Below, one piece after another: positions 1,320 to 27,436 of a stretch of 64,000 nucleotides of DNA. The notes below the pieces were generated by a model. The model saw only the letters and a program-made list of their open reading frames with translations, did not search any database and was not told the origin of the DNA. Every line of letters begins with the position of its first letter. Positions within the stretch are counted from its first letter, which is position 1. The DNA lies in the NCBI GenBank assembly GCA_951406725.2, contig OX597821.1, forward strand, positions 106,764,001-106,828,000. Direction: 5' to 3'. This DNA comes from Octopus vulgaris. Its lineage: Eukaryota. The position numbers and the translations under genes were made by a program.

Positions 1320-1388
1320 CTTCGAAACGGCTTCCTGCTTTATGCCCTGGAATTGCATGAAATTAATACTTTCCGTAATGCTGTGTAC
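1320..1388 (-). CDS. GRL gene A, exon 2 (69 nt, VHSITESINFMQFQGIKQEAVSK); exons 3-4 expected before window start
   Basis: Minus strand: tttctctttcatatgaag acceptor, 23 codons, gtaaag donor; same length, phase and similar peptide as exons at 40894-40962 and 60836-60904. Confidence 0.85.
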
Positions 1389-1574
1389 CTTCATATGAAA
1401 GAGAAAATAATAATAATAATGAGAAGAAGAAGAAGAAGAAGAAGAAGAACAACAACAACAACAACAACAACAACAACATCAACAACAAAAACAACAACAA
1501 CAACAACAACAACAATTACAATAACAATAACAACAACAACAATGACAATAATAATCATGATAATAATAATTTTT

Positions 1575-1910
1575 AAAAAGCAGCGTGCTAGGAGAAAAAT
1601 GTACGCTCAGTTTGTAAGAGATGTGAACGCCCAGACAGATACAGAGGACCGGTGGTCAATGAAGAGAGTAATATCAATACCACTAGCAATTGGTACAATT
1701 AGAAGTATCAGCACGCAACTACCAAAGTGATTGGTACAAGTGTGAAGGTGGAACACCTACAAAAATCAGCATTGCTTGGAACTGTAAGAATTCTTCACAC
1801 GATTTTTGAAACATGAACAGTAACTAAATGCAACCTTAATCTGATGGCTGTGGATAGCTGACATTTTACATCATACCCAACAGAATATGCTATGAGTTTT
1901 CATCACATAA
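1575..1910 (+). mobile_element. Degenerate 3' fragment of RLE LINE
   Basis: VISIPLAIGTI-like C-terminal remnant followed by (TAA)n. Confidence 0.55.
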
Positions 1911-2199
1911 CAACAACGACACTAATAATAATAATAATAATAATAATAATAATAATAATAATAATAATAATAATAATAATAATAATGATAATAATAATAA
2001 GAACAATAATAATAATAATAATTTCGAATTATTCGTTTACATCGACCACAGTGTTCAACTTGTATTTATTTTATCAACCCCAGAAGGGATGAAAGGCAAA
2101 GTCAACCTGCGCGGAATATGGACATAGAACGGTGCAACGTGCGAAATAGCGCAATAATAATAATAATAATAATATCGTAGAAGAAGCAAATTTATTATG

Positions 2200-3365
2200 G
2201 AAAATAATCTCAGCGGCCAAAACAAGATAATGATAATAAACCCATGGGATATTTCCTTAATTCATTATATTGTTAAGTGGTCAAAATGAGCACGAGAAAA
2301 TGGACAGGAAAGCTAGAATGGTGATGGCAATTGACAAAAGACTACAGCCCAAAAGCGATACTGATAGGCTGGGTGGAAGGTGCCTCATAGTATGCCATAT
2401 CTGTGTAGTCAACGAACAGTCTGGAATGGTACAGCAAACAGTATAGTGACTCTTTGCTCGCCGATGTTAGAATTAGCAATACAAGATCTACCAAAAATGT
2501 GACGCACTCACAAACATTTAAAAGCAACATGAAGAAGAATGAATAAACATGCATGGTCAATACCTCAGAGAAATCGAAATAAAAGACAAGACTTGGTGGT
2601 GACTACGAGAAAGTGATCGGCATTGATATGTAAGGTCCAGGAACAAGCTCTGAGAACTAATTACACCAAGTTCCAAATGCATAACAATCACCCCTTTGAC
2701 AACAAAAACGAAACAATCTCACATATAGTGAGTGAATGTAGCAAGCCGGACAGGAAGCACTGCAAAATAAGCGCGATAGCGTGGAAAATTTAGTTCATTG
2801 GAAACTACGTGAAAAGGGCAGCCTGAGCAGAGCACGGAAATTATGCGAACACGAATCAAAAGGAGTCACTGAGAAGAATAAATATAAGATACTGCGGCAT
2901 TTTACAATTAAATATGACTCAATATCGATGGTAGGAGACCAGACATTGTTGAGGTAGATAAGGAAAGAAAGGAAACCATGATAATAGATACTGAAGATGC
3001 ACGCGTAAGTGACAAAGACCTAGAAAATATTGCTAAGTACAGACTGCTAAAAGACGAAATTGCCGGAATGTCGGCTATGAGGAGAGCGTCTGTCACCCCA
3101 GTTGTTGTAGGCGCACTCGGAACAGTAACAACCAGGTTCGAAAAATGTTAGACAAATCTGAATTGGCATGAAAGCAGAGTAAGCCCAAATGTCTGCTCTG
3201 TTGAGAATAGATAGGATTTTGCGATTGATATTTGAGTGTTGAATGTCTTCCACAATTATCAAAGCTTATAATGTGCAGAAAGAGATCAGGTAAGACATTT
3301 GACAGTAATCTGCTCTCGGGTCTAAGAGGATCAACCAGAGCAAACTGATCGCTCTGAAAAGTAAG
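2200..3365 (+). mobile_element. Degenerate RLE LINE 3' half
   Basis: Remnants ETISHIVSECS, RRPDIV, VTPVVVGALG; ends in (AAT)n. Confidence 0.7.
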
Positions 3366-3446
3366 ACTATAACAACAACAGCAATAATAATAATGATAAT
3401 AAGGATAATAATAATAATAATAATAATAATAATAATAATAATAATA

Positions 3447-23760: not shown

Positions 23761-24327
23761 TAGGCAACAGAATATAGTGTCCTTCAGCTTCTTGTGAGCC
23801 TAGCTATGGCTCACGTTATTACGTTTATATATTTGTCGTGCAAGATTTTTTTATGTGAATTCATGTGTTGAAACAGATATTGTTGTATTTACGAATGGTC
23901 ATTTTGCCAGTTTAGCCAATAAAAACACACGCACTATATATTTGGTGTTACTTTGCTTCAGTGTTATTTATTTTTTACATTAAGCTTAATTTTCTTTCGG
24001 CCAGAGAACTTTCGCCACACTCCTGTGACCGCATCAGTGGTCCTTTGCTTTCTTCTTTCTTATTTGTGTCTCTCCTTATTAACCTTCAGTCATTTTGTAT
24101 TTCTATTGTATGTGTATTCATTTGCGCTTGCGCATATCTCTATGTGCGTCTATGTTTAGTTAGTGTGTATGTGTGTGTGGGGGAATGCCTGTAATATTTG
24201 TATCTTCTATTTATATACGTTCCTGTGATTTGTTTTTTGTTTTTGTTTATTCTTAATTGTTTTATTATTATTATTATTATTTTTTATATTGTACATGTTT
24301 ACATGCATTTATTATTATCATCATTAT

Positions 24328-24800
24328 TGAGTGAGAGAGTAGTGCATGCCATCAAAGTGACACTGGGGGTAAAATATATTAAGCCCAGTATACCCACCAT
24401 GACTACCCGTCTGATAAGGGTACACCAGGCACATGGATCACAACAATATGTGCGCGACATGATGATCTCATATCAAGATAAACAGCACATGACCTTGTAG
24501 GTGGGGCCCAGTTAGAATTTTCTTCTCGTCGAGTAACCCATCCTGCGCAAAAGGTCCCTGAATAAGGCTTGTTTAAGGATGTTGAACGAAACACCCATGT
24601 TTCCAGAGATGAACTATTCAAACTCCAAAGAATCCCTCTCAACATATGGATATGATACTCCCCCACCACTTCTGCTCGTGATCAGAGATGCACATATCAT
24701 CAGCCACTAAGGGACATGCTCAACTGGTTAAGGTCAAACAACTGACAAGTAAATCTGTGGTATTGAGCAGAATATTTACTGTAGCCCACCTTTTATAACA
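24328..24800 (-). mobile_element. Same non-autonomous repeat, 5'-truncated
   Basis: Reverse complement of ~3535-4002. Confidence 0.8.
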
Positions 24801-26075
24801 ACAATTTTTATATTTAGATATATCTGAGGTACTTAAATGTACTTATGTTCTTTGCTTCGGCTTTTTTCCATAGGCGCATGTAAGTATCTTAATTATATTC
24901 TCTCGTAAGCTCTACCGATGAAGAACAAATTCTTTATGAGATTAATTCCGAAATTGATTCAATATAGAGATGACGAAATTTAAATATTCTAACGGTTAGT
25001 TGCCCGACTTCAGTTCAATTTTTCTGTAGCAAGTGGATTATATGTGGAAAATCAGTATATTGGCTTTGGAATAATCTTCTTTAGCCCTTGCTTATAAGAT
25101 ATGCATATATATATATATATATATATATATATATATATATATATATATATATATATATATATATATACATATAATATAGGATAACATTTTGGGGAATAAA
25201 TTCTTTCTTTGGCCAGCATATTAAAAGATACCTTTAAAGGTTAAATTTATAAACAACATATGAACAAGGGCAAAAGAAAAGAATTCTAATGCCAAATATG
25301 CCGAAAATAGACAAATCGTCAGTAACCATATAATTCAGCACTATACGCACGCGTATCGAAGTAAACCGACAGACATTTTAAAAAAAATTCCGTTATTATC
25401 TCATCGGCCCAGATTTCAGAGGTATTTCATACGAATTTTCTCCTCGTCAGTGAAAAATACGGTAAGAAAGAAATGAAATACTTACTTATACCTATGGAAG
25501 AAGCAAGCACTAAGTCATGAGCACAATTAAGTACCCCAAATATAGTCAAAATAGAAATTCTTCAGCATACCTCGAATCACGTGCGATCGGACTGAAAACT
25601 CTCGTAGAGTGAGAGAGTCCGGTAGTGAACAATATTAAATTTACATCTAATATAGGATAAAATTCTTTGGAAAAAATTCTATCAATGGCCAGCATATTAT
25701 AAAATACTTTTAAAGGTTAAATTTATAAACAAATTATAAACAAGGACAAAAGATAAAAATTCTTATGCCAAATATGTCGAAAATAGACAAATCGTCAACA
25801 ACCATATAATTCATCACGCGTCTGGAAGTAAACCGAATGAAATTTGTAAAAAATTTTGTTATTATCATATCGGCCCCGATTTCAGAGTTAATTCATAAGA
25901 ATCTTCTCCTCGAGAATAAATAAGAATTGTTTATAAATTTAACCTTTAAAGGTAATATTTAATATGCTGGCCATTGATAGAATAATTTTCGGCATGTTAA
26001 AAGAATCATTATCGGTAAACTTAAACAATAATATTTATAATTATGCGTATAAATATAATTAGGGTTCAGCAAAAA

Positions 26076-26194
26076 AATTTGCCTCAACACATACCGAAAT
26101 TTAGAAACAGCATCCTCGAAAACTAGGTTTGGTAGAGAAATAGCTAGTTTTCTTGGCTTCTATTTCTAAATTTCGGTATGTGGTGAAGCAAATT
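26076..26194. repeat. Hairpin, ~50 bp arms (sister 46645-46762)
   Basis: cacataccgaaatttagaaa / tttctaaatttcggtatgtg. Confidence 0.8.
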
Positions 26195-26485
26195 AAGGGC
26201 AATTCCTTTCGAGTTGCTTCAGATTAATCATCTAAAGTTTGGTAACAGTCGAATTGTAATACAGCCTTTTATACTCCCACTTGTCACATTCTCCAGTTCC
26301 AGGAGGATCTCTGAAAATATTTTTCTACTTACGATTACATAGTCACTTGACTAATAACCGAACACTTACTATCAGCCACTAAGATATACAACCTATAATC
26401 AACAGCTCTGTTTGATTTCGTTGGTTTCCTAAAAATACAAATATTAGACAGAACTGATATCAAATAAATATCATATAAAACTTAC

Positions 26486-27436
26486 CGATTTATTTAAACG
26501 AATTCCACTCCAAATCATTATGATCTCATACATCAGATAATATGATGCCATAGATATTAAGAAAATGAATTTATGTAATTCATTTTCGTATGATTCATTT
26601 ATAATTCCGTAAGTTGCAATACAACATCCTATAACACTGCTAAGTACGACATATGCTGTGGAAAGACGTAATGATTCATTGAGTAATTTCAGCATTCTAC
26701 TCAAAGTATCATGAGTTTTACATATTTCTGTAATCTCTATCTCTCTCTTGAAGAAAATAAACTTCTCTGATTGCTGTTCCTTTACATAGCGTTGAACATC
26801 ACTCGTCACTTTGTTAAACTCATAATTCAGTGTGCTTCCGATCATTAGATTTACGTAAAAGTCAAGTTGCAGGGAAGCGATTGACATGCAGTTAAATGCA
26901 AGATGTAGTGCGAAATATAGAAGGTGATAAGTATTGTTGATTGGTACAGGAAATAGAATGAAACGCATAAAATCATGATTGGACTGTGTAAAAATATAAT
27001 CTTGAATCGTGAAAACAGTTAACGGGAACAATATAAAAAAGCATAGTGATTTATACGAAAAGAATATATTAGAGATATAGAATTTTCTATCATCTTCTTC
27101 AATTTTAAGTTCGGTGAATGCTTCAATTAGTTGTGTGTCGTTCGGTTTCTTGAAGAGTTTCATCAGACCATATATTGTTAAAAAGCTCTGGTTAATTATC
27201 GTGTAAATATAAAAAAGGGTTTCCGCAGTTGATCTATTTTTCATTTGTATTGCACTAATAGTGAACAAAATTGGAGCTACAGTCAAATATAAGCAGTACA
27301 CAGCGTAAAAACTATAGAAAAATATTGAGATAAATTTTTGAGATTTTAATGACGTTGTATTCGCAAACGATTTCCAAATATTTATTTTACGATAAAATTC
27401 CAGCAGTTTAAAGATTTGTGTTTCATTTGATTTCAT
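26486..27436 (-). CDS. GRL first exon B (317 codons, intact); no private downstream exons found
   Basis: Open ORF MKSNETQI...GIRLNKS, donor TCG|GTAAGT at the position homologous to gene A. Confidence 0.8.

Follow-up and report, generated by a model that had tools for sequence, protein, structure and literature searches.

Variable first exons with their own promoters, joined to a constant 3' region, are the design of the vertebrate clustered protocadherins and of UGT1A. Close counterparts are also described among the gustatory receptor (GR) loci of insects. In Drosophila Gr39a (and also in Gr28b and Gr23a), long first exons that encode six transmembrane segments and end in splice donors are joined to three small shared exons providing TM7 and the C-terminus, and exon gain, loss and pseudogenisation have been described for Gr39a (PMC2204066, in excerpt). 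A comparable organization, i.e., multiple long first exons, three shared short exons and phase-0 introns, yields 13 isoforms in Gr60a-m of Blattella germanica (excerpts of PMC6175461), and the bitter GR loci of the beetle Rhyzopertha have been annotated by an equivalent logic (PMC8956072, in excerpt). According to the available parts of the sources, a long exon followed by three phase-0 introns is the ancestral layout of the GR family (PMC6175461, PMC9998090), the pore helix and the signature motif being encoded by exon 4 (PMC12635824).

The window analysed here, 64,000 nucleotides of the Octopus vulgaris genome, forms the margin of a cluster of insect-type taste-receptor genes that spans one megabase, and this cluster is very probably a locus of the Gr39a/Gr28b style, with alternative first exons on a shared tail. 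The preferred reading of the window, which is considered probable, is that first exons A and B and a decayed third stand ahead of one tail within this shared-tail GR-like cluster, B being most likely spliced to the tail of A.

First exons, tail and predicted protein

Exon 1A (11575..12528, minus strand) comprises 318 codons with six hydrophobic segments and, read from 12528 to 11575, ends in a phase-0 donor (AGATCG/GTGAGT) whose alignment column is homologous to that of the exon 1B donor. Exon 1B (26486..27436, minus strand) runs from an ATG at 27436 through 317 stop-free codons to 26486 and the donor AAATCG/GTAAGT, also in phase 0. A TATAAAA box, a putative promoter element in both cases, lies 81 nt before the ATG of exon 1A (12603..12609, minus strand) and 82 nt before that of exon 1B (27512..27518, minus strand). 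Inspection of the sequence therefore confirms what the first-pass annotation had said of exon 1B, namely that it is intact, with its own TATA-like box and a phase-0 donor homologous to that of 1A. Reading through into the intron meets a stop after 4 codons in B and 9 in A, and B ends before TM7.

The same annotation had named the exon 2 of gene A as the nearest one downstream of B, which proved correct. That exon (1320..1388, minus strand; 69 nt, AG..GT, phase 0-0), with a weaker-looking acceptor (AAG), is the first of three shared tail exons, and exons 3 and 4 of this module A are intact just outside the window, 0.6 and 2.8 kb left of its start (C8:106763397-308 and from 106761208). Intron 1 contains, antisense to the receptor gene, a LINE reverse-transcriptase ORF (6187..8427, plus strand; 746 aa, RVT_1 E 5e-30), which is a passenger.

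The tail consists of exons of 69 and 90 nt and a last exon, all in phase 0. The full-length product has, as far as a structural model can tell, the seven-helix fold of insect odorant receptors (OR) and GRs: for P0001 (a D-tail isoform, not B; pLDDT 79.7, a single-sequence version with pLDDT 42.7 having been set aside), the best 8 of 48,161 chains were insect OR, Orco or GR structures (Z 19.6-24.4, the next being 8.3), with 311-370 residues aligned, rmsd 3.9-4.5 and about 10% structural-alignment identity, and Foldseek agreed on the OR/GR fold. Among nine proteins, six scored above the cut-off of 26.6 for Pfam 7tm_7 (PF08395; five from Octopus, one from Owenia), two scored below it and one had no match; neither P0001 nor exons 1A, 1B and 1C alone matched 7tm_7, and the first exons alone matched no Pfam family. 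The GR-like/7TMIC superfamily resembles these products in the fold, in the three 3' phase-0 introns (by exon size and phase) and in the TY-h5-Q motif: of the S7b motif TYhhhhhQF, the T, the Y, five hydrophobic residues and the Q are retained in module A (TYIMVVIQT) and in D (TYILVVIQT). Nevertheless, the final F is a T here, so that the superfamily motif ends in QF and the octopus one in QT or QTK, and the hydrophobic gate residue differs.

Cluster architecture and probable shared tails

The 1.064 Mb examined, devoid of N, contain 59 intact and 35 broken first exons and 17 modules, 16 of them with exon 3 (two of 61 long first-exon ORFs were dropped, one for lacking an ATG and one for an in-frame stop). 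In the aligned donor column, 58 of the 59 intact first exons have GT and one has GC, and 50 of the 59 read GTAAGT. Module D1 is preceded by 19 intact and 15 broken cassettes in a stretch of 265 kb that contains no other module, and the corresponding numbers are 12 and 7 for M7, 7 and 1 for M4, and 4 and 1 for M5 (plus strand). A comparison of exon identities did not establish M5 as the particular counterpart of module A. A TATA-like site near -80 is present in A, B and X, with look-alikes at the equivalent place in other cassettes, and when the 170 nt preceding 38 cassettes were inspected, no further common element was evident.

At the level of automated gene models, modules D and M4 are each joined to more than one first exon in two Octopus species. 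The O. sinensis RefSeq models LOC118764608 X1, X2 and X3 have a single D tail and begin with three distinct first exons, which match the cassettes at 107.013, 107.007 and 106.995 Mb with 97-99% identity; LOC118764607 X1/X2 and X3/X4 carry two first exons on M4, one of which lies, in the O. vulgaris genome, 72 kb off and beyond 7 other same-strand cassettes; and in O. bimaculoides LOC106880719, X1/X2 and X3 likewise have different first exons and a single tail. These public models pair cassettes with the next same-strand tail downstream.

These features suggest a mechanism in which each first exon of ~320 codons would encode S0-S6, including the ligand pocket, and the three small exons would encode S7a, a hairpin and the pore helix S7b. 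Many first exons would be transcribed from their own promoters and then spliced to the common tail. A transcript started upstream would use its own phase-0 donor, skip the downstream cassettes, since first exons are expected to have no acceptor before them, and take the first exon-2 acceptor. A new receptor would then need just a duplicated single exon with its promoter, the pore and part of the anchor staying constant.

The probable tail of exon 1B

On balance, exon 1B itself appears to use module A, and the history of the locus points in this direction. The interval 24800..41348 is the terminal copy of a tandem repeat unit of ~20 kb, 91-96% identical to 45443-61185, and its left breakpoint near 24800 is common to all eight B-family copies. 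Further into the window lie first exon C (47054..48003, minus strand), a recent B duplicate frameshifted by a 1-nt deletion, and an intact D-type module on the minus strand, with exon 2 at 60836..60904 (its peptide identical to that of the O. sinensis LOC118764608 models), exon 3 at 59837..59926 (90 nt, phase 0-0) and exon 4 at 57954..58010. Another D-type module, also on the minus strand, has exon 2 at 40894..40962 and exon 4 at 38131..38187 (S7b helix TYILVVIQT) and lost exon 3 by deletion of the equivalent of 59537-59984; its exon 2 is not usable by B because it lies upstream of it. The repeat unit reads X-D-B, and this phase places B, as judged from sequence, upstream of A's module before the recent eight-fold duplication. 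The single-copy ancestor would have had the order array-X-D module-B-A-module A, and the old B lineage would consequently have had only module A downstream. This weakens the suggestion of the first-pass annotation that B is an orphan of partial duplication.

Is exon 1B still in use? By plain Nei-Gojobori counting, applied to AT-rich sequence, B shows dN/dS of about 0.4-0.7 against seven other cassettes (dS 0.65-1.0), and together with a branch length of 0.58 in a quick tree this dS indicates that the B lineage is old. The D1 array gives a median dS of 0.59 and a dN/dS of 0.74, with 146 of 171 pairs below 1 (0.98 and 30 of 55 pairs in the youngest D1 clade), and a neutral exon like B would be stop-free with a probability of 1.5e-7 after 0.3 changes per site; ORFs without a tail of their own therefore seem to be maintained by selection. 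Nonetheless, no same-strand module lies within 524 kb of the intact cassette at 106.7555 Mb, so that intactness alone is no proof of the use of a near tail.

The most serious alternative, although an unlikely one, accepts that tails are shared across the cluster and holds that exon 1B, formerly spliced to module A or to a lost tail, is now silent or decaying and has stayed intact by chance since the eight-fold amplification. Relative to the B-family majority, exon 1B carries 11 non-synonymous and 2 synonymous codon differences, dN/dS within the family is 0.93, 4 of the 8 copies are broken, and the chance of remaining stop-free under neutral drift at 2-3% divergence is 0.2-0.35. The recent changes thus look neutral and are compatible with a recent relaxation. 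However, three of the four broken copies have one common frameshift and the independent losses therefore number only two; the ATG, the TATA box and the GTAAGT donor are all retained, exon 1B occupies the ancestral position among the copies, and the excess of amino-acid changes fits equally well diversifying selection on a receptor.

Expression records bear on the same alternative. Protein searches returned no full model of the B type or of the module-A type and none with B on exon 2A. Among the sequencing runs listed for exon 1B, none was an RNA run, which weighs neither for nor against its expression. Contigs were compared at exon 1B over 25300-27900. In run X2, tentatively taken as RNA, a contig of the B family matches up to the donor and then has 33 unlike letters, whereas the sequence continues past the B donor into the intron in the DNA run X5, and a contig of run X1 (perhaps DNA) spans it as well. 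The X2 match includes two letters past the donor (26484), where exon 2A (GTA) would give three and D-type exons start with GTT. This single spliced-looking contig, with a depth of 5.5 and 5 differences relative to B, is thus more likely to represent a paralogue of B joined to a D tail than B on exon 2A, and fits the decay of exon 1B. Naming the contigs from this interval as B or as one paralogue failed, as the variants form a mosaic. The proposal that A and B are alternative ligand cassettes on a common pore module is therefore backed by the cluster architecture (59 first exons versus 17 modules) and by the models of two species, but not by any record with B on exon 2A.

A second and improbable alternative is that B had a private three-exon tail within 12.5-24.8 kb, deleted or lost by the assembly, so that A and B would be separate genes. 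The absence of exon 2/3/4 homologues between 12528 and 26486, claimed in the first-pass annotation, was borne out by three methods: tblastn with PAM30 and a splice-aware profile scan, which recovered modules divergent down to a score of 36 (exon 3 background ≤17), gave zero, and blastn with word size 7 gave merely short matches of 11-35 nt, the best of them (E 3e-5) falling on a simple repeat in the flanking letters of the query. The assembly break likewise envisaged is absent as an N gap, with zero N in the window and in the 1,064,000 bases fetched; a mis-join without N is possible in this repeat-rich region, and the deletion of exon 3 from one module of the window indicates that modules decay here. 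Nevertheless, units with several cassettes are the norm in this cluster, and the gap contains a decayed first exon, as expected for a cassette array. Finally, it is highly improbable that first exons without a tail function as truncated six-helix read-through proteins or are trans-spliced, in spite of the few open intron codons and of the X1 contig that crosses the B donor, because the 59 intact cassettes all have near-perfect donors, exon 4 holds the pore helix and the signature motif (PMC12635824, in excerpt) and the public models join cassettes to downstream tails.

The decayed first exon just mentioned, overlooked in the first reading, is a 5' remnant at 22335..23147 (minus strand), between B and A and in the same orientation; its two pieces (72% and 70% identity) match the flank and the start of a cassette at C8:106.447 Mb.

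Implications and comparison with known systems

Counts that rely on annotation would show about a dozen uncharacterised genes here, against a coding capacity of about 59 receptors. The repertoire hidden in this way would be a second candidate channel family for octopus chemosensation, beside the chemotactile receptors, of which up to 26 are given for O. bimaculoides (PMC11526382, in excerpt). Tentatively, octopuses may thus possess a second, essentially unannotated chemoreceptor family of ~60 ionotropic taste-receptor-like channels, built at one locus from variable ligand-binding exons and few constant pore modules, with one module serving 19 receptors over 265 kb and a protocadherin-like choice of one promoter per sensory cell, independently of insects. 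Such a locus would be a natural experiment, with a variable pocket on a constant pore, and would pose in a mollusc a problem of first-exon choice over distances of up to 265 kb.

The strategy of shared-tail splicing would also be extended beyond arthropods, suggesting that tail sharing is repeatedly favoured by the ancestral exon layout of the GRs. This qualifies the idea of a convergent origin in a mollusc: since the exon layout itself is described as ancestral to the family (available parts of PMC6175461 and PMC9998090), an independent origin would apply at most to tail sharing. In the literature searched, no description of a shared-tail receptor arrangement was found for octopus; the arrangement is known in insects, and the octopus form would, on present sequence evidence, be a new variant of it.

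As in Gr39a, several long first exons, each with a donor, precede a given set of small exons in the octopus cluster, and the sequence between them is gap-free. Unlike Gr39a, with its four or five large exons in the excerpts consulted, the cluster has as many as 19 intact and 15 broken ones on one tail, spread over 265 kb, and repeats the pattern at several tails, in a mollusc. The D1 array would likewise surpass the 13 isoforms reported in the excerpts on Gr60a-m. With respect to Gr60a-m and the beetle loci, the octopus cluster further differs in that whole cassette-plus-tail units have been duplicated eight times and in that it is not from an arthropod. The protocadherins and UGT1A, finally, encode proteins unrelated to those of the octopus cluster.

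Exons 1A and 1B and their downstream module

Both first exons lie on the minus strand and are open from an ATG, 1A (12528-11575) over 318 codons and 1B (27436-26486) over 317, and each ends in a phase-0 donor falling in the same aligned column, with a TATAAAA box preceding the ATG by 81 nt (1A) and 82 nt (1B), so that the first-pass description of 1B as intact, with its own TATA box and a donor homologous to that of 1A, stands. Read-through past the donor meets a stop within 4 codons in B and 9 in A. Among the three copies of exon 2 in the window (1320-1388, 40894-40962 and 60836-60904), only 1320-1388 is downstream of B, as had been noted; exons 3 and 4 of this module A are undamaged, directly left of the window start. 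The reported lack of any exon 2, 3 or 4 homologue between A and B was borne out by three blank searches of that interval, including a splice-aware scan that recovered 16 exon-3 copies (scores 36-125; background at most 17 among 7,201 candidates). An assembly break would have counted against the proposal, and the window contains no N; what the gap does hold is a decayed third first exon (22335-23147).

Other elements are present in the window. Intron 1 carries a LINE reverse-transcriptase ORF of 746 aa (6187-8427, plus strand), preceded by disrupted frames that begin near 4700. The ORFs at 19973-20674 (plus), 35659-36078 (minus) and 55496-55915 (minus) may represent GIY-YIG endonuclease ends of Penelope-type elements, which they resemble; a 96% copy of the first lies near 107.228 Mb. 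The D-type module at 38131-40962 lacks exon 3 after a deletion of about 450 bp; its exon 2 to exon 4 splice would be in frame, minus 30 residues of S7a and the hairpin, and its sole near cassette (exon 1C) is frameshifted.

Organization of the cluster

When the genome was searched with exon 1B, 74 of 115 scored candidates proved to be matches, every one on the contig bearing the window (C8) at 106.38-107.24 Mb, and strong tail matches were confined to the same region. The mapped interval (1,064,000 contiguous bases without N) comprises 59 intact first exons, or cassettes (what remains of 61 long ORFs after two were set aside), a further 35 that are broken or partial, and 17 tail modules (exons 2-4). 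The donor is at the homologous column in 59/59 intact cassettes, as GTAAGT in 50. When cassettes are allotted to the next same-strand module, D1 receives 19 intact and 15 broken over 265 kb, M7 12 and 7, M4 seven and one, M5 four and one, A two and one, M8 six and M6 two; deep first-exon clades track module types in a quick tree. Every cassette would be driven by its own promoter, and the transcript would be spliced from the phase-0 donor, past any cassettes further down, to the first acceptor of an exon 2, yielding receptors whose pocket (S1-S6) varies and whose S7 pore stays constant. Alternative first exons sharing a tail are very probable across the cluster, and splicing of B onto module A is predicted with rather less assurance; that the promoters are used, that cells choose among them, and that the products bind ligands and act as channels, we infer.

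The M7 cassettes form a separate divergent subfamily (C8:106.573-106.735 Mb) with that single tail, for which no public gene model was seen. An intact first exon at C8:106755497-106756495 (plus) lies 495-525 kb from its five nearest relatives (dS about 0.49, dN 0.28) and tail M8, a whole minus-strand block intervening, which suggests an inversion or insertion of ~480 kb, or else a 524-kb intron. At C8:106953161-106953230 (minus), a D-type exon 2 carries a one-base insertion, and its module is likely dead.

Gene models and reads

Shared tails recur in automated, uncharacterised RefSeq models, and with the excess of cassettes over modules they support the proposed Gr39a-type architecture. In Octopus sinensis, isoforms X1, X2 and X3 of LOC118764608 join cassettes at 107.013, 107.007 and 106.995 Mb to one D tail, and LOC118764607 joins the 106.379 Mb cassette (X1/X2) and the 106.390 Mb cassette (X3/X4) to M4; O. 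bimaculoides LOC106880719 has two first exons (X1/X2 vs X3) on one matching tail, and two cassettes are each modelled with the M6 tail, one in each species. RefSeq isoforms of this kind would ordinarily rest on RNA-seq junctions. In two species, M4-tail isoforms use a second acceptor that lies 42 nt inside exon 2 and makes the product 14 residues shorter; its CAG is present in 11/11 listed exon-2 copies (1320-1388 and paralogues). Protein database searches did not return a B-type first exon or module-A tail. The cassette at C8:106390015-106391052 (plus) has two in-frame stops here, and the O. sinensis X3/X4 models employ it (96-98% identical); working copies may vary between species or individuals.

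Four sequencing runs, all in the form of assembled contigs, were aligned to 25300-27900. In run X2, by guess RNA, a 242-letter contig (depth 5.5) tracks a B-family exon as far as 26484, after which 33 letters do not align; DNA-like run X5 continues through the donor into the intron, as does one contig of run X1, which hints that a B-family donor is in use. Beyond the donor, two more letters of the X2 contig match, where three are expected for exon 2A (GTA) and two for a D-type exon (GTT), so that by match length this contig, whose variants are unassignable to any one B-family copy, is more likely a B paralogue spliced to a D tail.

History and selection

A unit of ~20 kb occurs in eight repeats at C8 106.79-106.98 Mb. 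All B-family copies have a left breakpoint equivalent to 24800, beyond which the other seven match DNA upstream of cassette X, the outermost A-like one; the unit order is thus X-D module-B, and by parsimony the single-copy ancestor would have read array-X-D-B-A-module A. Since the B lineage is old (quick-tree branch 0.58; dS 0.65-1.0 vs seven other cassettes), module A has, on that order, most likely long been its tail, unless a private tail of B was deleted, leaving no trace. Current function of B is another matter: B departs from the family majority at 11 codons non-synonymously and at 2 synonymously, 4/8 copies are broken through two independent events, and the family dN/dS is 0.93, all of which would speak against it.

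At the sequence level, the D1-array cassettes are old (median dS 0.59; dN/dS 0.74; 146/171 pairs below 1), while the youngest D1 clade has dN/dS near 1 (30/55 pairs below 1). As 5.5% of single changes to an exon of this kind create a stop, the chance of a frame staying open across 0.3 neutral changes per site is about 1.5e-7; therefore these cassettes were selectively maintained, though without their own tails. A young clade of 11 intact cassettes at C8:107.06-107.23 Mb (dN/dS near 1, up to 2.1) may be under diversifying selection that acts on the ligand pocket.

Protein identity and comparison with known systems

The closest full-length relative is an O. sinensis protein, and models from that species share 97-99% identity with cassettes near the window. 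Insect OR/GR structures match the structure model of this relative (52-sequence alignment; pLDDT 79.7) with Z 19.6-24.4, the next chain scoring 8.3, and Foldseek agrees. The Pfam 7tm_7 cut-off is passed by 6/9 scanned proteins; first exons alone and P0001, the full-length D-tail protein modelled, do not reach it. All three 3' introns are in phase 0; in the last exon the motif reads TY-h5-Q followed by T, where F is expected. The final two model helices (336-355, 366-386) map to the small exons; an excerpt of PMC12635824 places the ligand pocket in S1-S6, with S7b lining the pore and S7a forming part of the anchor.

In the full-text literature searched, which excludes most subscription papers, the octopus GR cluster and its splicing are undescribed, and the available portions of PMC7067487, PMC6408891, PMC11526382 and PMC12635824 do not mention them; supplementary receptor lists of genome papers or GRL surveys could already include some of its genes. 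The arrangement had been proposed as convergent in a mollusc. According to extracts of PMC6175461 and PMC9998090, the family had this exon layout ancestrally, and several distant protein hits end at the same exon boundary, so convergence is possible for the sharing alone. The locus is real and is a new form of a known arrangement: as far as the consulted sections describe them, Drosophila Gr39a (PMC2204066), cockroach Gr60a-m, with 13 isoforms (PMC6175461), and beetle bitter GRs (PMC8956072) work alike.
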